Assembly: GCA_017642885.1 (NCBI GenBank)
Contig: JAEPOM010000015.1
Coordinates: forward strand, 13,059 to 77,058
Length of the DNA: 64,000 nucleotides
From: Henriciella sp.
GTDB lineage: Bacteria > Pseudomonadota > Alphaproteobacteria > Caulobacterales > Hyphomonadaceae
Reading direction: 5' to 3'
Shown: one piece after another, positions 1 to 21,491 of the stretch
Numbering within the stretch: the first letter of the stretch is position 1
How the letters are laid out: each line of letters opens with the position of its first letter
The notes under the pieces: generated by a model
Seen by the model: only the letters and a program-made list of their open reading frames with translations
The model's database searches: none
What the model was told of the DNA's origin: nothing
Translations under genes and position numbers: made by a program

Positions 1-18
1 CACTCATGAGTCCGCGCC

Positions 19-711
19 ATGATCCTGCGCCGTCTCACCACCGCTTTTCGCAAGCAAGACTGGTTCACCGTCGCCGTGGAAACGCTGATCGTCGTGTTCG
101 GCGTGTTTATCGGCTTGCAGGTGAACAATTGGAATGAGGCGCGGCAGGATCACGCCATCGCCCGCCAGCTTGAAGCAGGACTGATCGCCGACGCGAGTAT
201 CATTCTGGAAGAGACGCGCGAGAATATTGCAACGATGAGTGACGCGCTTGAAGCCATGGATGCCCTGTTTGACTCGTTAATCCAGGCTGACAGCGTTCTG
301 GTGGAAGCGGATGTGGCGGAGAAACTCAGCTTCGCTTTCTATTTGCCGAACCATGCTAAGCGTTCGCCTGCCCTGCTAGAGGCGCAGAATGATGGCACGC
401 TCAGCCTTCTGCAGGACAAGGAATTGCGTCATGCGATATTGCGATGGGACAGGCTGTTACAGTCTTCCGCAGAGACACAGCAAAGCCGCCGCGAGTTCGC
501 ACGGGCTTATCTCTCCTCCGGCGTGCGCCTGCAATCTCTTATCGGGGTCATTCCATTCGAAGAAGCCATGAGCGAGAGCGGCGGTCGCAATGAATTGGTG
601 ATCGCGATCAGTTTGATGGGGGGTACGCTTGAGGCCGAACTCGCGGCCTTCAGAGAGAATGAAGAGGAGACAAGGAGTCTTCTGATACGCCTTGGTGAGG
701 GCGCAGCATGA
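19..711 (+). CDS. Single-pass membrane protein of an uncharacterised paralog family (DUF6090-like), array copy 1
   Basis: N-terminus MILRRLTTAFRKQDWFTVAVETLIVVFGVFIGLQVNNWNE: basic leader, W motif, one TM helix, then a helical soluble domain. ATG overlaps a TGA of an upstream gene. DUF name is from memory of the motif. Confidence 0.75.
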   Translation: MILRRLTTAFRKQDWFTVAVETLIVVFGVFIGLQVNNWNEARQDHAIARQLEAGLIADASIILEETRENIATMSDALEAMDALFDSLIQADSVLVEADVAEKLSFAFYLPNHAKRSPALLEAQNDGTLSLLQDKELRHAILRWDRLLQSSAETQQSRREFARAYLSSGVRLQSLIGVIPFEEAMSESGGRNELVIAISLMGGTLEAELAAFRENEEETRSLLIRLGEGAA

Positions 712-1487
712 TCCTGCGCCGCGTCACCCAACACGTTAAGGACCAGAACTGGTTCGCTGTCGGGCTCGATTTCATGATCGTCGTGATCGGTGTCTTCTTT
801 GGTATCCAAGTCGCGAATTGGAATGATGCTCGAACGAATGAGTATCGGGAGTCAGAGATACTCGAAACCATTTATGACGAATTACAGGAGGACAGGGTCG
901 AGTTCCAGGGCGGTAAAGAATCTGCGCTCGTTACCATTTCCAGCGCTTCATACGTTCTTGAGGCGGCGGGATTGGACGTCCTCAACCAGCTGGTAATGCC
1001 CGTGTCCAGTGTTAAGGATCTGGCCATCTCCTCGAACTACGCACCTATTCCCGAACCAATCGCGCTGTCGGAAGATCAGAAACAGCGACTGTGGTCATCC
1101 ATTGTCGTAGCTTACTATCCAACCGCCAATGCGACATCGATCGACGCTCTGATCGGTGCTGGGCGTTTGGACCTTATCACAAACGAAGCCGTGCGCCGAA
1201 ATCTTCAAGAATACCGGAACGCGGCAATCTCGCTCAGGGGAAGCCAGGTCGAAACGATTAAGGCGTTTCGAACCATCGCTGTGACTGCCGGGCAGGAGCG
1301 CGGATACTCCCCTTTCTATCGTGGTCCAGAGCAAGAATTCATTGAGCAGGTCATGGATGACGAGCATCTGCTTGCCGTCATAGCCACCCAGCGAGAGTAT
1401 GCAGCTCTGCACCTCCGGTTGATCGAATCAGCCGATGAAGATGCGAAGGAATTGCTTTCCCAGATAGAAGCGTTGGGAATTGAATAA
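708..1487 (+). CDS. DUF6090-like single-pass membrane protein, array copy 2
   Basis: MILRRVTQHVKDQNWFAVGLDFMIVVIGVFFGIQVANWN; ATGA overlap with copy 1. Confidence 0.8.
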   Translation: MILRRVTQHVKDQNWFAVGLDFMIVVIGVFFGIQVANWNDARTNEYRESEILETIYDELQEDRVEFQGGKESALVTISSASYVLEAAGLDVLNQLVMPVSSVKDLAISSNYAPIPEPIALSEDQKQRLWSSIVVAYYPTANATSIDALIGAGRLDLITNEAVRRNLQEYRNAAISLRGSQVETIKAFRTIAVTAGQERGYSPFYRGPEQEFIEQVMDDEHLLAVIATQREYAALHLRLIESADEDAKELLSQIEALGIE

Positions 1488-1663
1488 TGATGTATTTACA
1501 ACACAAGATTGGGTGTGAGGATAACTTAGTACGGAATTTCCTCCGACGCCCTGTTCTTTCACTAAGTAAAACACTGCATCAATTCCCACTAGAGCGGATC
1601 CTGAGATGTCTGGTTTTTCCCATGAACCCGGTTAGTTTGATTGAATTGCGATAGGGGCATTTT

Positions 1664-3826
1664 TTGGAAAAACTATTTTCGGAGTTAAAGCGACGGAACA
1701 TTTTCCGCGTTGCTGGTGTCTATGCGGTGATCGGCTGGCTTTTGGCGCAGATGGCATCCGTGCTCGAAAATGCCATGAATATGCCAGCCTGGTTCGACAC
1801 GATGGTGGTCAGCTCTCTGTTGCTCGGCTTCCCAATAGCTATGATTCTTGCCTGGGCGTTTGAGATGACACCCGAGGGCGTCAAACGCACGGAGTCTGCA
1901 AATGCAGATGAAGAGGCCTCACGGAAAACCGGACGGGGGCTGGACTACGTCTTGATCGGCGGTCTGGCGCTGGTTGGTGTCCTGATTATCGGCGGCCAAT
2001 TCAGGTCAAGCGCACCCGCAAATCCTGATGCGGCGCCATCTCTCGCCCAGACCAACAAAATAGACGGTCAGTCGATCGCGGTATTGCCGTTCGAGGACTT
2101 TTCACCTGACAAAGACCAATCCTATTTCGCAGATGGCATCGCCGAGGAATTGCTGAATGTCCTGGCCCGGGTCGATGGCTTGCGCGTCGCCTCACGAACA
2201 TCAGCGTTCACGTTCAAAGCCCGCGAGTCGAGCATTTCGGAAATTGCGGCGGCTTTGAATGTCGGACATATTCTCGAAGGGAGCGTACGAAAGTCTGGTG
2301 AAACCCTTCGGATCACGGCCCAGTTAATCGATACCGAAACCGATGAGCACCTTTGGTCTGAGACATATGACCGCCCGCTAACAGCAGAGAACATCTTCGA
2401 AATTCAGGATGAAATATCGCAAGCGATTGTGTTGGAGCTCAACGGCCAGCTGGATTTGTTACCTGAGACGAGTTCGCGACCCACGCAATCGACCGAGGCT
2501 TATGACGCTTATCTGAAAGGCAAGGAAGCCTATCGTAACCGGACAGAAGACGCCCTCAATGAAAGCTTGGACTGGATGGGGCGTGCGGTGACGCTGGACC
2601 CCGATTTTGCTCAGGCTCATGCGCAGCTGGCTCGGATTTACTCGCTTCAGCGTGAATATGCCGGCCTTGGCAACAATCACGCTCGGTTTCGTTCGAAAAC
2701 GCATATCGATCGCGCCCTTGAGCTGGCGCCAAACGATTGGGAGGTCCTCTCCGAATACGCTTGGCAAATATTTGGTGAAAGGCTGAATCTAGAGGACGGG
2801 CTCGCGGCCTTTGACGCCGCGATTTCCGCCAATCCAAACAATGCCAGTGCCCATCGGGGGCGCGGGTTACTGCTTTTGAATTATGGAGAAACCGAAGACG
2901 GAATGGTGTCTCTCCAGCAGGCGCGACAACTTGATCCAAAATCTGAAGTTCTTTTGATTAACATGTCTCGGGGTTTCCAGGACCGGGATGATATCGATGG
3001 TAGTCAGGCGATCTTATTAGACTCGTTAAGGCTTAATCCTGATTTTCAATTGGCCCGCGGACAGTTGTCACAAGTATTGGTTCAGCGCGGTAATATTGAA
3101 ATGGCACATCGCATCGCGATGTCGTGCCAGGGAGATAATTACTGCGATAATGCATTGGGCAATATTTATGCGCGATTGGGTATGGATGACCGGTTGGCCG
3201 CGCTTGGAGCGCGGAGTTGGTCTATGTATCTTCCCTTCAAGAATGAGAATACTGCCGAACTTGATCGACTCGTTTCCATCGCCACAGGCTTTGATCCGTT
3301 ATCCGACCTCGGTTTGTTGGACGTTATGAACAGACCGACGGAGGCCTATTCGACGATTCAGGACAGTCCGGAGCGTTTGGACTTATTGCTCGATGGCGAG
3401 CTAGAGCCTAACTCAACAAATCTAAGGGATGAACTGGCTTTATATTGGGCGCTTCAACAGGCCGGGGATCAACGTGCCGCAGACGTCCGCGCCTCACTCA
3501 GTACTGGTTTCGAAGGCGTTGAGCCAGGCCCATACAATTTTGGCACGGCATATATCAACGGCGCGAAGTGGCGAATGGTGGAAAATGACCCGGACGGCGC
3601 GATGGCCTGGCTCAATGCGCTCGCCGACAGGGGCGTCGCCACGACGTTTGTCCAGGTCAAATCACACTGGTTTGAGCCGCTTTATGATCGGCCCGACTAT
3701 CAGGCGTATAAGGCAAGAATGCGGGCGATTGCAGACCGCGACCGCCAGCTGATCGAAGCGCAACTCGCCAATCCACCGGAAATCTGGTGGACACCGGATG
3801 AAGTCTTGGACGGCGCGGAACAATGA
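1664..3826 (+). CDS. Membrane-anchored TolB-like domain plus TPR repeat protein, no cyclase domain
   Basis: N-terminal ELKRRNIFRVAGVYAVIGW with 3 TM segments; SIAVLPFEDFSPDKDQSYFADGIAEELLNVLA...RVASRTSAF domain; repeated TPR-like units (ALELAPN, AISANPNNA, ARQLDPK, SLRLNPDF); TTG start. Confidence 0.85.
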   Translation: MEKLFSELKRRNIFRVAGVYAVIGWLLAQMASVLENAMNMPAWFDTMVVSSLLLGFPIAMILAWAFEMTPEGVKRTESANADEEASRKTGRGLDYVLIGGLALVGVLIIGGQFRSSAPANPDAAPSLAQTNKIDGQSIAVLPFEDFSPDKDQSYFADGIAEELLNVLARVDGLRVASRTSAFTFKARESSISEIAAALNVGHILEGSVRKSGETLRITAQLIDTETDEHLWSETYDRPLTAENIFEIQDEISQAIVLELNGQLDLLPETSSRPTQSTEAYDAYLKGKEAYRNRTEDALNESLDWMGRAVTLDPDFAQAHAQLARIYSLQREYAGLGNNHARFRSKTHIDRALELAPNDWEVLSEYAWQIFGERLNLEDGLAAFDAAISANPNNASAHRGRGLLLLNYGETEDGMVSLQQARQLDPKSEVLLINMSRGFQDRDDIDGSQAILLDSLRLNPDFQLARGQLSQVLVQRGNIEMAHRIAMSCQGDNYCDNALGNIYARLGMDDRLAALGARSWSMYLPFKNENTAELDRLVSIATGFDPLSDLGLLDVMNRPTEAYSTIQDSPERLDLLLDGELEPNSTNLRDELALYWALQQAGDQRAADVRASLSTGFEGVEPGPYNFGTAYINGAKWRMVENDPDGAMAWLNALADRGVATTFVQVKSHWFEPLYDRPDYQAYKARMRAIADRDRQLIEAQLANPPEIWWTPDEVLDGAEQ

Positions 3827-4617
3827 TCCTGAGACGCATGACCCAACACGTGAAGGACCAGAACTGGGTCGCGGTCGGGTTGGATTTCGCAATAGTTGTG
3901 TTGGGTGTCTTGTTCGCGTTGATGGCAGAGCAGTGGCTGCGATCCGGTCAGCAACGATCGGACTTACAAGGTGCAGAACTCGCAATCAACGCCGACCTTT
4001 TCACGAACCTTTTCAGCATTAAGGAAGTCATCGCTATTGCGCCCTGTCGCAAAGAGCGAACCCGCATTCTCTCCGAGATGCTGCAAAATGAGGACGAACC
4101 TTGGCCGGGATTGCCATGGACGCCTCATCCCGGCGCGTTCCAGACACAATTACCGGAAGTCTTGCCAACCCCTTACAGGATGTGGGGGTCTCGAGTCTGG
4201 GAGGCCGAACTGAGCAATGGAACGCTCTCGTTGATGAATGCAGACCGGCGGCGCGCGCTCGACAGTCTGTTCAGGGGCACAAACTTGATGCTCGACAAGC
4301 AAGAAGAAATTTTTGATGCCCAAGCCCGATTAAAAATTCTCGCTTTGCCGCGCGAGATGACCTCGGATGAGCGTTCGCGATACTTGGAATTGCTGCATTT
4401 CCACGATTTGCAAAGCGGGCTGCGCGAGCGCGTGGCACGGCAAACTTTACCGCAAATCAAAGCAGCCGACCCGCAACCCGATCAAGCGTATTTCGACGAA
4501 TTTCGGGACTATATGCCAACCTATACGCAACAGCGGTTAGAACGCTATGGAGATTGTTTTGTGCCGTTCGAGATGCCTTATCTCGACATTTTAACACCGA
4601 ATGAGATCAGGCCATGA
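3823..4617 (+). CDS. DUF6090-like single-pass membrane protein, array copy 3
   Basis: MILRRMTQHVKDQNWVAVGLDFAIVVLGV; ATGA overlap with the TPR gene. Confidence 0.8.
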   Translation: MILRRMTQHVKDQNWVAVGLDFAIVVLGVLFALMAEQWLRSGQQRSDLQGAELAINADLFTNLFSIKEVIAIAPCRKERTRILSEMLQNEDEPWPGLPWTPHPGAFQTQLPEVLPTPYRMWGSRVWEAELSNGTLSLMNADRRRALDSLFRGTNLMLDKQEEIFDAQARLKILALPREMTSDERSRYLELLHFHDLQSGLRERVARQTLPQIKAADPQPDQAYFDEFRDYMPTYTQQRLERYGDCFVPFEMPYLDILTPNEIRP

Positions 4618-5354
4618 TTCTGCGTCGTTTGCCTCAACATGTGAAGGATCAAAACTGGATCGCGGTCGTCTTGGACTTTGTCATAGTGGTTGCCGGTATA
4701 TTGATCGCCTTTCAAATTTCCTCGATGGCCGAAAAGCGCGGCGAGGTGGCGCAGTTTGATCGCCAAATGGAAGCGCTCAAAGTGGAAATGACGGAGAACC
4801 TGGACCGCTATGAAATCGCAGTTGACCGGATTAGAGATCAGTACGAAAGCATTACGGCGCTTCGTGAACTCCTAGCCGATCCCGAGAGCGCAGCGACCGA
4901 GGCAGAGATCAATAACCTATTCTATAAATCCATCGGGGTTATTGGCATTTATACGAAGAGAAACTCGCTTGATGTGGCGTTGTCCTCCGAACTGTTCGTT
5001 GAGAGCAATGCGGCTGAGTTGATCGATCAGATTGAGCAATGGGAAGAAAAGCTCGCGCAGCTCAATCGGGTCCAGCAAGACGCGTTGAATTTTCGCGACA
5101 ACATCATGCACGCCCATTTCTCCGAGACCCTCGCTTATGCTTCGATTTTAGGCGCAACCGGCATCGCGGAAGGGCGGATTGCGCCATCCAGGTTCGAGAA
5201 TTCCAGGGAAGAATTGTCACAGGACAGGGTGCTCGATAACATTCTGGCGGGTCGGCAGCTAAGTACTTTTCAGGACCTAGTTTACATAAACGACCTTGTT
5301 GAACAGACCCATGAGATCATAGCCTCATCTAAGTCGCTCAATGCGCGACACTAA
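4614..5354 (+). CDS. DUF6090-like single-pass membrane protein, array copy 4
   Basis: MILRRLPQHVKDQNWIAVVLDFVIVVAGILIAFQI; ATGA overlap with copy 3. Confidence 0.8.
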   Translation: MILRRLPQHVKDQNWIAVVLDFVIVVAGILIAFQISSMAEKRGEVAQFDRQMEALKVEMTENLDRYEIAVDRIRDQYESITALRELLADPESAATEAEINNLFYKSIGVIGIYTKRNSLDVALSSELFVESNAAELIDQIEQWEEKLAQLNRVQQDALNFRDNIMHAHFSETLAYASILGATGIAEGRIAPSRFENSREELSQDRVLDNILAGRQLSTFQDLVYINDLVEQTHEIIASSKSLNARH

Positions 5355-5631
5355 CGCGAGATAATTTTGACTTGTAGGGACAATTGAAAAACTCTTACAG
5401 GTCCGATCCCTGTTCGCTAAACTCGAGAAAATTTTTAATGGACCTCATAATCTGAACGATTCTAGGGTTGTTTCTGGCAAGTGACGATAGAAACCTCCAC
5501 GGTAGCTGAAGACACTCTTTTTCACAAACCTCCCTATAATATACTGAAAATTCATAGCTTGTAATCGTTTTTCATGCTATTTGACATGTTGCACCCGCCT
5601 CCACCGGCCAGAATAGAAATTCACACATTCG

Positions 5632-7164
5632 ATGCCCAATCAGCGTTTTTCAGACCCGGTCACTGTTTTTCACGACCGCGCACTGCCGGAACTGGCCAAG
5701 CCTGTAGGGTATACTGCATTGATAGACGCCTATGATCTCAAAGTCCCCCTGCCCCTCTTTCTTTACGCGGTCGGTCCCAGGCACAGAGTGTACGAAAGAG
5801 ACAATTGGCACATTTACACGCCGCGACATGATCCAAGGGCCGACCTAGAGGGACACCTCACCTTCGCGCTAAAGTATGAGGGGCTCGATTTAGCGGTCCT
5901 TAAGCGGCTTTTTCAAGCGGTTGATCAAGCAGACATCGCGGGCATGGTTCGCGCCAAGCCCACGAGCGCCTACACACGGCGCATCTGGTTTCTCTATGAA
6001 TGGCTAATCGGCGAAGCCTTGGACTTGCCAGACGCAAAGTCTGGATCCTATGCCGACATTATCGATGACAGACTTCAATATCCAGGATCCAGTCAAACAT
6101 CGACACGCCACCGCGTGCGAAACAATCTTCCCGGAACGCCTGCTTTTTGTCCGCTGGTGCGCCGGACACCGGCGCTCGAGCGTAAGATCGAAGCTAACCT
6201 ACATGAGCGGGCAAGCACGGTCATCGCCAATATCTCTGCGAGTGTTCTTGCCAGAACCGCAGCCTTTCTCTTGCTGAAAGACTCCAAGTCAAGCTTTGCG
6301 ATCGAAGGTGAGGCTGCTGCCCACAATCGAATTCAGAGATGGGGCCGCGCGATCGGACAAGCCGGCCGAAATCCCTTGAACAATGATGAGTTTTTAAGGC
6401 TTCAACGCATCGTTATGGGCGATGCACGTTTCATTCGCCTTGGCTTCAGAAATGAAGGCGGTTTTGTTGGCGAGCATGAGCAAGGCTCTAGGCTGCCTTT
6501 ACCAGATCATATCAGCGCCAAACCGGATGATGTCATCCATCTGATCGAAGGCTTGATTACCTATGATCATGATCATGCCGGCGCGCTCGATCCTGTCATC
6601 GCCGCCGCAATTATTGCGTTCGGATTTGTCTATATTCACCCGTTCGTAGACGGCAATGGGCGCGTGCATCGATATCTCATCCATCATGTCCTGACGGCGC
6701 GCGGCTTCAATCCGGCGGGTATGGTGTTTCCTATTTCCAGCGCGATCCTTGAACGGATCGATGATTACCGCAAAGTGCTAGAGTCTTATTCTAAGCGTCT
6801 CCTTCCATTGATCGATTGGAGGCCGACGGATCAGATGAATGTCGAGGTCTTGAATGAAACAGCTGATTTCTATCGCTATTTCGACGCGACCCCGCATGCA
6901 GAATTCCTGTACGAATGTGTTGAGAAAACCATTGAAGAAGATCTGCCCCAGGAGGCTGAATTCCTTGAGCGTTATGATGCCTTTAAAACGGCGATCGACG
7001 CCTTGATCGAAATGCCGGACTCGACCGTGAATTTGCTATTCAACTTTCTTCGCCAACACGATGGCACTCTGTCCAAGCGTGCGCGCGAGAATGAATTTTC
7101 TGCACTCAGCGCTGCAGAGATAGAGCGGGTTGAAACCATCTACACGCGGACATTCGCGGACTGA
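5632..7164 (+). CDS. Fic family protein with N-terminal autoinhibitory motif (class II-like)
   Basis: Canonical HPFVDGNGRVHR active-site motif; SFAIEG matches the (S/T)xxxE(G/N) inhibitory motif upstream of the Fic core. Confidence 0.9.
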   Translation: MPNQRFSDPVTVFHDRALPELAKPVGYTALIDAYDLKVPLPLFLYAVGPRHRVYERDNWHIYTPRHDPRADLEGHLTFALKYEGLDLAVLKRLFQAVDQADIAGMVRAKPTSAYTRRIWFLYEWLIGEALDLPDAKSGSYADIIDDRLQYPGSSQTSTRHRVRNNLPGTPAFCPLVRRTPALERKIEANLHERASTVIANISASVLARTAAFLLLKDSKSSFAIEGEAAAHNRIQRWGRAIGQAGRNPLNNDEFLRLQRIVMGDARFIRLGFRNEGGFVGEHEQGSRLPLPDHISAKPDDVIHLIEGLITYDHDHAGALDPVIAAAIIAFGFVYIHPFVDGNGRVHRYLIHHVLTARGFNPAGMVFPISSAILERIDDYRKVLESYSKRLLPLIDWRPTDQMNVEVLNETADFYRYFDATPHAEFLYECVEKTIEEDLPQEAEFLERYDAFKTAIDALIEMPDSTVNLLFNFLRQHDGTLSKRARENEFSALSAAEIERVETIYTRTFAD

Positions 7165-7189: not shown

Positions 7190-7516
7190 AGGTCTTAACT
7201 GGCCAGCGCAGATTGAGGCATGGCGGTTCTGAGCGGCTTCCTCAAAAACAAGCCCTATGAGCCTGACAAGCGTACTGCGCGCCTGCATCACCGTTTAGTC
7301 TATGTGCAACGTTTTCCGAATGGAAACGGACGACATGCGCGCATGATGGCGGACCTCCTCATCCGTCGTCTTGGCGCACCGCCCTTCTCTTGGGGCAGTA
7401 ATAGAGATGACGGCGTCATCCACGACATTGGCGAGCTTCGCAAGCGATATGTCTCAGCGCTGCGAGCGGCAGACGGCAATGATTATGAACCATTGATTGC
7501 CTTTGCACGATCGTAA
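7190..7516 (+). pseudogene. Remnant of a 'mobile mystery protein B'-type Fic gene
   Basis: ARLHHRLVYVQRFPNGNGRHARMMADLL...PFSWG...RYVSALRAADGNDYEPLIAFARS resembles the C-terminal half of that family; catalytic HP is replaced by QR; N-terminal half is missing and the reading frame is broken near 7214. Confidence 0.7.
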
Positions 7517-18900: not shown

Positions 18901-21491
18901 GCGATGTCTCCTTTGCTCGCGATCAGTGTGACGGCGTCAGCGATCGGCACATTCATTTCCGCCAGACGTTTGAATTCGGCGAAGACTTCTGGGTCGGATG
19001 AATAGGCAACAAGGCTGCTGGCATCGAGCGCCAAGCGCCCAAGGCAGCGAAACCCGCCCGCCCCGCGAATGAGCGCTTCGGAGAACGCGCCTTTCACCGT
19101 CTTCAGCGACTTGATCGCCGCTTCGAGACCGGGATCGAGTTCAACCAGGCTCGCGGCGCGCAATTGTTCGACCGCGTCATCCTTCATGCGCATGAAGATG
19201 GTCCAGTCAGAGTTCTGGAAAGCGAGCTTGGCGCCTTCAGACTTGTTGACGTCTTCAATGGACTGGGTCGCGGTAATGAGGGCGGCATTATACTTCCGAC
19301 AGCGCCGGGCAAAGCCTTCGATAAATCCGGCAGCTTCGCCATCACCAAGAATTTGCCAGGCTTCATCCATCATAAGGACTTTGCGCTGGGACCGATTGGT
19401 GCGCATGGTCGCGTCGACCAACAAAAGTAGGCAGTAAATGACGAGGCGGCGCAGCTGTTTGTCGGTGCCAAGTTCGGAGAGCTCATAGACGGTGAAAGGA
19501 TTGTCGATGCGGATGCTGGCCGGCCGCGCAAAGAAGTCGCCATAGGCCCCGTCTGAGCGAAACGGCGCGAGCGCCTGGGCCATATCCGCGCCGCGCTCTC
19601 CATGGGATTTGAGGCGCTCGACCACGTGGTCAGGTGATCCGGCGCCGCGATGATCGGCCCAGACGCTTTCAACGACCTCCATCATCAGACCGCGCTCAGC
19701 GGGATCGGGTTTCTCTCCCTGAAAGGCTGCTTCCAGCATGAAGCCGGTAATGCCGACTTTGGCGTCGCGCTCGCCGTCGGAATCCAGCCCATCGCCGAAC
19801 AGGCTGAATGGGTTTAGCGAGACCTTTTTCTCCGTTGAAAACGTCACGCATTTGCCGCCCTGTAGCCGCGCGGACTGAGCAAAGGAATAGCCATCGTCCA
19901 GAACGACCACGACATCGCCGGTGGCGGCATGGGCGCTTGCGAGTTCCTGCAGCAAAACAGACTTGCCAGAGCCTGACGCGCCGAAGATGCCAACATTGTG
20001 GTTGCCTTCCCCGACATTCTGGAAAGGCGACCACATCCAGGGCTGGCCGCGGCGACCAACCATGAGCAGAACCGGCTGATCAGAGCCGCGCGGCTCGCCA
20101 TGCAGCGGGGCCAGCGCGATTGCGGTCTGGGCCACCATGCGCCGCGTTAATTGTAAGGCTTTTAGATCCTTGATCGCGCCGTCCCCGCCATTCATCGGCA
20201 TACAGGCGGCGAGGAGCGGTCTCTGGATCCGGCTGCCTTTGGCAATATCGAGGCCGAGATTCTTATAGATCGAGCGCACCGACCGGTCGGCCTTCTCAAT
20301 GTCTTCGGCTGGCGCGAGCACGCTGACGGTATGGGCGGCGCGCACAAGCCGATCGCCGGATTGAAGCTCGCTCACCACATCGCGCCAAGCCTGGGCTTTT
20401 TCTCCGAGCGATGGATCTATTTTCGCCATCGGGCCTTCAGCGGAGCGAACCGAAGAGGCGAGCTTGGTCGACGCATAGGAATTGGTAAGATCCGCGCCGC
20501 CAAAGCTGAGGGTCATGCAGGAGAGCACTGAGCCGGAATGGCGCAGCGTGTCCGTGGTCGGATGGCCGATCAGGAGCGGCGCGGTCCAGCTGGAAATTAG
20601 CTGCGGATAGGCGCGGATCTGAAACATGCGCCATTCGAAAGCGTCACGTTCAACCTCCAGGGATCTCGGATTAAGCGTCTCGGTTTTCACCCCGAGCCCG
20701 CTCGACCCAACCGCATATTCGGTATCATCGCGAACGCATTGAACATCCAACATGCGTTTCTCATCGAAGCGCGCCTCAGTGCCCCATGCGCCGCGTCTTG
20801 GATTGAGCACATCATCCATGAGGGCGACGAGGCCGCTACCATCGAGCCGGCCATGCGCCACACGCGCGGTGCCAAGCGTGCCTTCCAGTTTATCGCGCAA
20901 CGCTTGAAGTTCGAACACATCCGCGGCGCTCGGTTTGCCGGGAAAGGACAGCGCCACAAAGGCGCGCCATTCGCGCACCAGGAATGGTGATGCATTGGTG
21001 AGGCTCGTCCACGCGGCTTTTTCAAGCAAGGTCGAGCGCGCGTCTGCGATGGCGCCGTAAACACCGCCGCGCGCCCGGCGTGGGGCCGCCCAGTCTTCAA
21101 TGATGGGCGCAATACGCGGAGAAGACCAGTTGATGAACTGAACGACGCCGCGCGTCATTGAATCTTCGGTCGCCCATTCTTTTAAGAGCGAGATGAAGCT
21201 GTCATCGCCATTTGCGACCGGGGCGAGTTCGACAATCCACCCGGTCGAGGCGCGATTGTGGAAGAGCATGGTTTCCGGATCATACATACGGTAAGGCAAC
21301 ATGGCGCTCAGCCGATCGCGATGCTCCAACTCCCGGAAGCTCTCAACAAACCCGTCCGCGCCGAGGAGCCCGCCGCCAATCCGGCCGAGCCAGGCTGAGG
21401 CGCGTTCCAGAACGCCGCCAATCTTGGCCTTATCGGGCGCGTAGCCTTCTTCGCGCGCAGCGGCGTCTGCGTGATGGTGATCATACGCCAT
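18897..21491 (-). CDS. traC: VirB4-like ATPase TraC
   Basis: Walker A GASGSGKS, Walker B LMMDEAW, ARRCRKYNAALITATQS; 864 aa. Confidence 0.96.
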   Translation of the reverse strand: MAYDHHHADAAAREEGYAPDKAKIGGVLERASAWLGRIGGGLLGADGFVESFRELEHRDRLSAMLPYRMYDPETMLFHNRASTGWIVELAPVANGDDSFISLLKEWATEDSMTRGVVQFINWSSPRIAPIIEDWAAPRRARGGVYGAIADARSTLLEKAAWTSLTNASPFLVREWRAFVALSFPGKPSAADVFELQALRDKLEGTLGTARVAHGRLDGSGLVALMDDVLNPRRGAWGTEARFDEKRMLDVQCVRDDTEYAVGSSGLGVKTETLNPRSLEVERDAFEWRMFQIRAYPQLISSWTAPLLIGHPTTDTLRHSGSVLSCMTLSFGGADLTNSYASTKLASSVRSAEGPMAKIDPSLGEKAQAWRDVVSELQSGDRLVRAAHTVSVLAPAEDIEKADRSVRSIYKNLGLDIAKGSRIQRPLLAACMPMNGGDGAIKDLKALQLTRRMVAQTAIALAPLHGEPRGSDQPVLLMVGRRGQPWMWSPFQNVGEGNHNVGIFGASGSGKSVLLQELASAHAATGDVVVVLDDGYSFAQSARLQGGKCVTFSTEKKVSLNPFSLFGDGLDSDGERDAKVGITGFMLEAAFQGEKPDPAERGLMMEVVESVWADHRGAGSPDHVVERLKSHGERGADMAQALAPFRSDGAYGDFFARPASIRIDNPFTVYELSELGTDKQLRRLVIYCLLLLVDATMRTNRSQRKVLMMDEAWQILGDGEAAGFIEGFARRCRKYNAALITATQSIEDVNKSEGAKLAFQNSDWTIFMRMKDDAVEQLRAASLVELDPGLEAAIKSLKTVKGAFSEALIRGAGGFRCLGRLALDASSLVAYSSDPEVFAEFKRLAEMNVPIADAVTLIASKGDIA

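Follow-up and report, generated by a model that had tools for sequence, protein, structure and literature searches.

The window analysed here is a stretch of 64,000 nucleotides (nt) from Henriciella sp. (contig JAEPOM010000015.1; G000:C6:13059-77058, where G000 is the source genome and C6 coordinates are those of the contig). It opens with an array of four genes that encode a common N-terminal leader and transmembrane segment, and it carries a fifth such gene further along, at 28088. This arrangement, with its constant anchor and variable bodies, had been proposed in an original prediction made from the sequence letters, and an alignment of the five copies confirmed it: the first ~40 residues are common to all, with M1, L3, R4, R5, Q13, W15, V18, I24-V26 and G28 invariant, while the overall identity is 19-24%. 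Two classes of leader can be distinguished by the residues before the transmembrane helix and by the acid within it, namely class K (K-D-Q-N-W, Asp21) and class R (R-K-Q-D-W, Glu21). The genes, numbered both as copies of the window and by their place (A1 to A8) in the operon to which the first four belong, are as follows.

19 to 711, + strand: copy 1 (A5, fifth paralog of the operon), 230 amino acids, DUF6090-like, R-class leader, ATGA over the stop of A4.
19 to 135, + strand: leader of copy 1, whose 39 codons specify a basic peptide, predicted to be cytoplasmic, and a transmembrane helix.
708 to 1487, + strand: copy 2 (A6), 259 amino acids, K-class leader, AlphaFold2 model with a predicted local distance difference test score (pLDDT) of 91.5.
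1664 to 3826, + strand: TPR protein within the array, between copies 2 and 3, 720 amino acids, combining TPR repeats and a TolB-N/FlgO-like region with a conserved N-terminal anchor of its own.
3823 to 4617, + strand: copy 3 (A7), 264 amino acids, K-class leader, conserved cysteine pair C75/C245, AlphaFold2 pLDDT 90.4.
4614 to 5354, + strand: copy 4 (A8), last gene of the operon, 246 amino acids, K-class leader.
28088 to 28885, + strand: copy 5, solitary, 265 amino acids, starting with ATGC (Met-Leu), its body nearest to those of copy 3 and A1.

Every gene of the array overlaps the preceding stop codon by ATGA (708/711, 3823/3826, 4614/4617, and 19-22 for copy 1), and the stop of the TPR gene (3826) overlaps the start of copy 3 (3823) in the same manner. 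The predicted extension of the array beyond the window was indeed found: four further copies, all ATGA-overlapped, lie directly upstream with starts at C6:10009, 10782, 11570 and 12337, and a SnoaL/DUF4440 gene (170 amino acids, C6:9500-10012) precedes the first of them, again with an ATGA overlap. The operon begins 3 kb upstream of the window and comprises, in order, the SnoaL-like gene, A1-A6, the TPR gene, A7 and A8, that is, eight paralogs and a membrane-anchored TPR protein, with window copies 1-4 (A5-A8) as its 3' half; the leader classes along it are K, R, R, R, R, K, TPR, K, K. Genes overlapped in this way are expected to be co-transcribed, translationally coupled and made together. 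The overlap also leaves its mark on the protein, since the ATGA of the stop-start overlap fixes residue 2 and hence the Met-Ile start: ATGA is followed by Ile at residue 2 in 100 of 100 genes, and ATGC by Leu in 22 of 22.

A genome-wide search of the 3.66-Mb genome with a profile made from the five copies gave 17 matches in 16 genes, the copies outside the profile matching at E values from 1e-14 to 1e-43. Seven more copies are dispersed in the genome; one of them is a stub of 60 amino acids, and one is split across two contig ends (G000:C12:67560-67673 and G000:C52:3-197), the break falling exactly inside the leader. Since the repeated leader probably breaks short-read assembly, draft genomes are likely to contain more copies than are counted in them. 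With a GC content of 0.543 in the array and 0.566 in the genome, base composition is no diagnostic sign of a foreign origin, and a search of Rfam found no RNA family within window positions 1-6000.

The window genes are divergent alphaproteobacterial members of the family DUF6090 (PF19578). In Pfam and NCBIfam searches of the five copies, only sub-threshold DUF6090 and noise were returned: copy 2 scored 17.8 bits and copy 1 12.5 bits against a DUF6090 cut-off of 23.5, and the others had no match to this family. Paralogs in the operon and elsewhere in the genome exceed the cut-off (C6:11633 with 26.3, C11 with 25.0 and C5 with 24.0 bits). PF19578 is also present in P0014-P0016, homologs with 71-75% identity to copy 2 that are annotated as 'DUF6090 family protein'; Hyphomonadaceae, Hyphomonas and Henriciella are the organism names attached to the homologs. 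The clusters nearest to copy 2 in the ESM Atlas are likewise DUF6090, with a feature score of 0.97 and a structure TM score of 0.72. Homology to PF19578-bearing proteins is continuous, and the copies, 230-265 amino acids long, have one N-terminal transmembrane segment and a helical body of ~180-250 amino acids, as seen in the AlphaFold2 models of copies 2 and 3. They resemble the family in the N-terminal anchor ending in a Q..NWN-type motif, the helical body of ~200 amino acids and the total length; they differ in that all five window copies fall below the cut-off and in that the Pfam model, which has no described function attached to it, begins at the transmembrane helix and lacks the conserved cytoplasmic peptide. 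The profile search that had been suggested as a check was run against 1.84 billion representatives and retrieved 17,477 matches at E≤1e-3, of which 7,083 were at E≤1e-10 and many were full-length; the resulting family size of ~17,500 clusters is counted at 50% identity. A search of the literature library found no paper naming DUF6090 or PF19578, in line with the original prediction, which knew of no assigned function. DUF6090 is one of the larger function-less protein families, and this locus offers a clean alphaproteobacterial example of it.

Structures of the variable domains were predicted with AlphaFold2 from deep alignments for copies 2 and 3, and both models are helical bundles of the same architecture. 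A short N-terminal helix is followed in each by a helix that runs from residue 15 to about residue 86-88, with the transmembrane segment within it; this long helix continues into a bundle with two further helices of ~35 residues, between which lies a less regular, membrane-distal insert. In the copy 2 model, the transmembrane helix extends as a ~70-residue helix of the bundle. On these models, each paralog would be a single-pass inner-membrane protein with a basic N-terminus of 14 residues, one transmembrane helix, a bundle of ~200 residues and a variable membrane-distal insert. The body is predicted to face the periplasm (N-in/C-out), because the N-terminus is basic (R4, R5, K/H8-11) and the positive-inside rule would place it in the cytoplasm. 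Alignment of both models by VIA-align retrieved the same generic or designed up-down bundles from the PDB, with Z values up to 11, and a Foldseek search of the PDB with both gave no match at E≤0.001.

Certain known membrane proteins have a comparable outline. In the four-helix-bundle domains of chemoreceptors and sensor kinases (PilJ 8wdf, McpZ 8f7n, PcaY 6s18, TorS 3i9w), an N-terminal transmembrane segment also runs into a long helix of a periplasmic up-down bundle. In contrast to these, the DUF6090 copies lack a second transmembrane segment and a cytoplasmic signalling domain and have no Pfam match to four-helix-bundle domains; the Z values of 7-8 obtained with such sensors are within the noise for helical proteins and can be reached by unrelated bundles. 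Type IV pilins and pseudopilins share the short basic N-terminus, a hydrophobic helix with an early acidic residue, a variable C-terminal domain and tandem genes, but the DUF6090 copies have Trp rather than Gly before the helix, an acidic residue six rather than five positions on, no prepilin-peptidase site, and a helical instead of an alpha/beta body. The class III signal peptide of type IV pilins was accordingly rejected on 124 genes, in which Trp15 is invariant before the helix and the acidic residue stands at +6, and both the Tat-signal and the prepilin-signal readings of the N-terminus were dropped on motif spacing.

The strongest conservation lies in the anchor. Across these 124 genes, all from the genus, Q13, W15 and G28 are invariant, every protein has Asp or Glu at position 21 within the transmembrane segment and Gly or Ala at position 32, and Q34 and W38 are near-invariant; G28xxx(G/A)32 is a GxxxG-type motif. 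In an alignment of the copy 2 subfamily, nearly invariant positions number two in the body and about twenty in the anchor. This pattern indicates that the anchor is the conserved, function-bearing and selected part of the protein, and its polar and small residues are of the kind that would mediate helix-helix packing. The acid at position 21 also brings to mind the proton-driven 5:2 motors. Comparable transmembrane acids are Asp25 of ExbD, Asp23 of TolR and Asp32 of MotB, and tandem ExbD paralogs are common. The DUF6090 copies might then be alternative plug subunits of such a motor, the transmembrane helix with its buried acid docking into an ExbB/TolQ/MotA-type pentamer and the bundle coupling to periplasmic targets; they are bitopic, presumably N-in, and carry their invariant Asp/Glu in the N-terminal third of the transmembrane helix. 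The buried acid is, however, the only feature shared. No Pfam match to ExbD/TolR (PF02472) was found at E≤1, the modelled body is a helical bundle and not the ExbD alpha/beta domain, and no ExbB/MotA-like family occurs among the recurrent neighbour clusters of 77 loci, of which only some are annotated; we regard a motor role as very improbable.

Comparison of leaders and bodies between genomes indicates that the shared leader is a recombination site on an evolutionary scale, as the original prediction had suggested for the constant part. First of all, among 24 close ortholog pairs there are 6 whose leader (nt 1-60) has diverged significantly further than the body. Leader and body identities in these pairs are 86.7/99.2% (p=2e-6), 75/94.0% (p=9e-6), 75/93.3% (p=3e-5), 78/92.9%, 91.7/99.5% and 88/97.6%. 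Because a leader more diverged than its body is the opposite of what stronger constraint on the leader would predict, the leader was replaced in these pairs. Second, leaders are homogenised within arrays at the level of codons. In the array of G061 (16 or more copies), identity over the leaders' first 78 nt is 93%, while BLAST detects no more than 12 of the 120 body pairs, none of them above 40% identity. Among identical residues of codons 2-18, the fraction of identical codons is 0.89 in G061 and 0.68 in A2-A5, compared with 0.38 expected from codon usage and 0.35-0.39 in the bodies; over the leaders of the R-class operon copies, copy 1 included, it is 0.61 against the expected 0.38, a clear excess. 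Such an excess is confined to the R class. In the K-class copies, among them copies 2 and 3, on which the original prediction had illustrated conservation at the DNA level, the likeness of the leaders is close to what conserved amino acids and codon usage would produce (0.46 over codons 2-18 in the source genome, near expectation).

Third, the same body is found with different heads. The A4 body has 97% amino acid identity to its counterpart in G015 and 94% to that in a Hyphomonadaceae metagenome-assembled genome (MAG); its head reads R-R-L-T-T-A in G000 and G015 and Q-R-L-A-T-S in the MAG, where the first 54 nt equal the G061 consensus. Orthologous cross-genome pairs are head-discordant in 15 of 54 cases. 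The type of head mostly goes with the genome: 12 of 17 genomes have one type, and the larger mixed arrays are mainly of one type, residue 4 being always Arg in G000, G002, G034 and G036, always Gln in G033 and G035, and Gln in 14 of 15 copies of G061. Leader stubs followed by unrelated sequence were encountered in G061, G032, G022 and the source genome. Such a stub has an intact start and 14-26 leader codons and then an early stop (G000:C39:6202-6384, L015:13074-13199, L037:~3053, L017:~10102); the stubs resemble scars left at the leader by recombination or by an insertion.

The bodies tell a different story from that of hypervariable domains. The soluble domains, described in the original prediction as barely alignable, are not unrelated. 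With the leader removed, alignments among copy 3, copy 5 and A1 give 29-32% identity with E values down to 1e-32 (32% and E 7e-32 for copy 3 against copy 5, by BLAST), and A4-A2-A5 and A3-C70-C11 form further BLAST-linked subgroups. In an hhalign comparison of the copy 2 and copy 3 subfamily profiles, only the first ~100 columns aligned; common ancestry of the remaining body is based on the shared architecture, which is the same in both models, and on chains of BLAST links. The ratio of nonsynonymous to synonymous substitution rates (dN/dS) of ortholog bodies is 0.04-0.30 in 22 cross-genome pairs. The bodies are old, distinct and conserved types under purifying selection, and are not hypervariable. 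No two copies in the genome share an exact run of DNA longer than 25 nt.

These data bear directly on one alternative, an ordinary expansion of paralogs by tandem duplication and divergence, in which strong purifying selection on the anchor keeps the leader constant and recombination has no special role. The near-saturated synonymous sites of the K-class leaders (0.45 against 0.39 expected), the absence of exact runs longer than 25 nt and the homologous, selected bodies would all agree with it. On the other hand, leaders more diverged than their bodies in close orthologs are contrary to what stronger constraint predicts, and against this explanation stand also the different heads found on one body, a head type that follows the genome in most genomes, and the strong synonymous homogenisation of the leaders in the G061 array, few of whose body pairs are detectable by BLAST. 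For the genus, this explanation is already contradicted, and for the array as a whole we hold it to be unlikely.

Whole cassettes are likewise mobile. A4 is 92.8% identical in nucleotide sequence to its counterpart in G015, compared with 79.0% for enolase between both genomes. Around A4, no similarity to G015 remains 5' of the ATG; on the 3' side it continues at ~88% through the leader of copy 1 and then falls to ~50%. The breakpoints of this mosaic are the start codon and the leader/body junction. Next to the A4 ortholog, the G015 version of the copy 1 gene (A5') is a diverged pseudogene with a stop at codon 13. The order of the cassettes differs between relatives as follows.

G000: A1-A2-A3-A4-A5-A6-TPR-A7-A8.
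Hyphomonadaceae MAG: X-A7(89%)-A4(94%), the A7 ortholog directly before the A4 ortholog.
G015: X-A4-A5'.
G078: X-A7'(46%, truncated)-IS21-A5(69%).
G012: A6 ortholog only, between enolase and a GGDEF-EAL gene.

The copy 1 ortholog of G078 is 73% identical in nucleotide sequence in the body and 90-93% in the leader, and the copy 2 ortholog in G012 is solitary. In G078 (L018:8520-10845), an IS21-like element, comprising a 517-residue transposase and an IstB-like open reading frame (ORF), lies between two cassettes and parts the copy 1 ortholog from the rest of the array. An ortholog of copy 3 at 81% stands alone in a chromosome labelled Gammaproteobacteria. Larger arrays of the genus have cassettes in common, some in co-linear order and others rearranged (for example F...E...C, with A and Y displaced). 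Copies per genome range from 0 to about 18 in the genus; a match at the protein level was obtained in 12 of 18 sampled same-genus genomes, and leader-like DNA in 43 of 71. Overall, comparison of the arrays indicates gain, loss, reordering and horizontal exchange of cassettes. The original prediction thus fared well here: neither fixed gene order nor uniform divergence along the genes was found among relatives, and breakpoints fall at the ATG and the leader/body junction. The shared 5' end acts as a recombination site, for cassette exchange as well as for the re-heading of genes, and this explains the extreme variation in copy number.

Patchy copy number (0-18 per genome), horizontal exchange of cassettes and a constant anchor with variable bodies are also what one would expect of polymorphic immunity, decoy or defence cassettes, each body binding or neutralising a different toxin, phage protein or conjugation component. 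The array of the source genome moreover lies beside type IV secretion system (T4SS) genes: it is situated between two Fic genes and adjoins an F-type transfer region, with copy 5 just past that region. The flanking Fic-domain genes are at window 5632-7164 and at G000:C6:70-1047, the latter also with DUF4172; a short ORF at window 7220-7516, perhaps a fragment, encodes P-N-G-N-G-R, a Fic-like motif. Against a defence role, Pfam and NCBIfam found no toxin domain or paired gene in the operon, PADLOC gave no match below E 0.009, the bodies are conserved between orthologs, and the copies belong to the inner membrane and not to the surface. Since no T4SS genes were seen near those arrays of the genus that were examined in other genomes, we read the position beside the transfer region as co-location. 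Those arrays are flanked instead by recurrent M20 and S41 peptidases, a sulfotransferase and similar genes, which look like synteny markers rather than partners. A role in immunity or defence is consequently judged to be quite improbable.

Among known systems in which a constant part serves the exchange of variable modules, the Rhs and CdiA-CT/CdiI orphan cassettes are similar in this recombination and in a content that varies by strain, but the DUF6090 arrays have no toxin domain, toxin-immunity pair or large delivery protein, and their constant part is the 40-residue N-terminal anchor of every gene. Mycoplasma vlp/vsp, Neisseria opa and Borrelia vsp/OspC are tandem families of surface proteins whose conserved 5' ends are kept alike by recombination. 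The DUF6090 arrays resemble them in the constant 5' leader or anchor, divergent bodies, tandem arrangement and concerted evolution of leaders, and OspC and Vsp are among the weak fold matches. They differ in being inner-membrane proteins, in showing no phase-variation repeats or invertible promoters, in being co-oriented, overlap-linked and likely co-expressed, and in having bodies conserved across species. A reading as silent cassettes was rejected, all copies of the array being full-length and ATGA-overlapped.

Considering these comparisons together, the reading that we prefer, and to which we would assign a probability of roughly 0.6, is that of an operon of DUF6090 inner-membrane paralogs with a conserved anchor, old body types and a recombining leader, which supply co-expressed periplasmic binding or sensing modules. 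On the genetic side, the leader serves as a recombination substrate, at which gene conversion of short tracts re-heads genes and homogenises the leaders within an array, and at which leader-leader exchange adds, removes or reorders whole cassettes, some of them horizontally. On the functional side, the anchor may be a helix-helix packing module that ties each of the differing periplasmic bundles to the same partner, this partner being either the other paralogs, in mixed oligomers, or another membrane protein; on this view, the array would encode a set of periplasmic modules for binding or sensing that are expressed together. What is new is thus a divergent alphaproteobacterial member of a catalogued but unstudied family, together with evidence for conversion of the leader head, for exchange of cassettes across genomes and for recurrent partner families. 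The locus also provides practical handles, namely an anchor with specific residues, stable body types and a shared 5' end that works as a portable recombination site.

It is to be noted that several observations weigh against this operon-and-module interpretation. In the four K-class operon copies, among them copies 2-4, identical codons in the leader amount to 0.45 against 0.39 expected, with synonymous sites near saturation, so that recent conversion is without support for these copies; it is the R-class copies and the other genomes of the genus that provide the strongest evidence for conversion. Selection at the nucleotide level on the coupled start could add to synonymous conservation. The operon status is deduced from the overlaps alone, the promoter and terminator scan having been near the shuffle expectation and uninformative. 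The structural matches are generic, at Z≤11 and Foldseek E≥0.2. Lastly, the functional half is suggested by residue conservation and topology.

The neighbours of DUF6090 genes were surveyed in 77 loci from many Proteobacteria and some Bacteroidota, only part of which are annotated. The original prediction had singled out the TPR protein of the array as an interaction candidate. Its family does recur, 12 of the 77 loci having a member no more than 10 kb from DUF6090 genes, but the association is not an obligatory one: several genomes of the genus that are rich in arrays gave no match to the family at E≤1e-20, and the TPR protein was rejected as an obligatory partner on that ground. The family often forms ATGA-overlapped tandem arrays of its own, and is a second constant-anchor, variable-body family at DUF6090 loci. 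Its near-constant anchor consists of an E-L-K-R-R-N-V-F-R-V type motif and a transmembrane helix, and its tandem arrays beside DUF6090 arrays (L060:1323-6850, L096:13942-20314, L113:3508-7526, L081:790-5086) come from Alpha- and Gammaproteobacteria and one Polaribacter MAG. A further 'short-anchor' family of ~165 amino acids, with an N-terminal transmembrane segment ending in a Q-x-R-Q type motif, is also present in 12 of the 77 loci as tandem arrays (L071:11590-15523 and 20197-20802; L065:4356-10057; L031:2105-3081). It has no Pfam match, and its homology to DUF6090 is unsupported, with an hhalign probability of 6%. Finally, a SnoaL-like lipoprotein was found in 5 loci, its ORF abutting or overlapping the DUF6090 gene (0 nt apart) in 4 of the 5 (e.g., L081:9450-10001, L083:9483-10001); a SnoaL/DUF4440-like lipoprotein is possibly the fixed first gene of such operons.

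The recurrent anchored TPR proteins and the SnoaL-like lipoprotein point to a larger periplasmic system. As a tentative extension, for which the odds are distinctly against us, the arrays of DUF6090, anchored TPR and short-anchor proteins might together form an undescribed envelope system, in which interchangeable periplasmic modules dock by a constant anchor onto a shared partner or onto each other, and in which conversion of the leader is selected because it keeps the modules compatible. If this were true, the array would be a combinatorial, horizontally exchangeable repertoire of periplasmic receptors.

At G000:C6:4995-7142 lies a gene for a 715-residue protein with a weak match to Trans_reg_C (17.4 against a threshold of 26.2 bits) and a TPR region 29% identical to that of the TPR protein inside the array. 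Its product may be a regulator of the ToxR/CadC type, bound to the membrane and encoded near the operon. This neighbour invites another explanation, that the DUF6090 copies are co-receptors or sensor modules signalling to a shared regulator, such as this winged helix-turn-helix, transmembrane and TPR protein 3 kb upstream, in the manner of ToxS-ToxR or LysP-CadC. The protein is a paralog of the in-array TPR protein, and the modelled bundle bears a weak likeness to PilJ, McpZ, PcaY and Adeh_2942 (Z 7.2-8.3), with TorS as a weak Foldseek match at E 1.3. Such Z values nevertheless lie within helical-bundle noise, the Trans_reg_C match is sub-threshold, and many genomes rich in arrays gave no match to the TPR family, which leaves this explanation with the slimmest chance of those considered. 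What speaks for the four alternatives (paralog expansion, defence cassettes, motor plugs and co-sensors) is analogy, with no positive support beyond it.

One more array departs from the usual plan at its 5' end. In G033 (L026:8850-9860), it is headed by an ORF of 336 amino acids with an N-terminal transmembrane segment and a C-terminal cupin domain, which suggests that payloads of other kinds can be attached to the membrane anchors of these loci.

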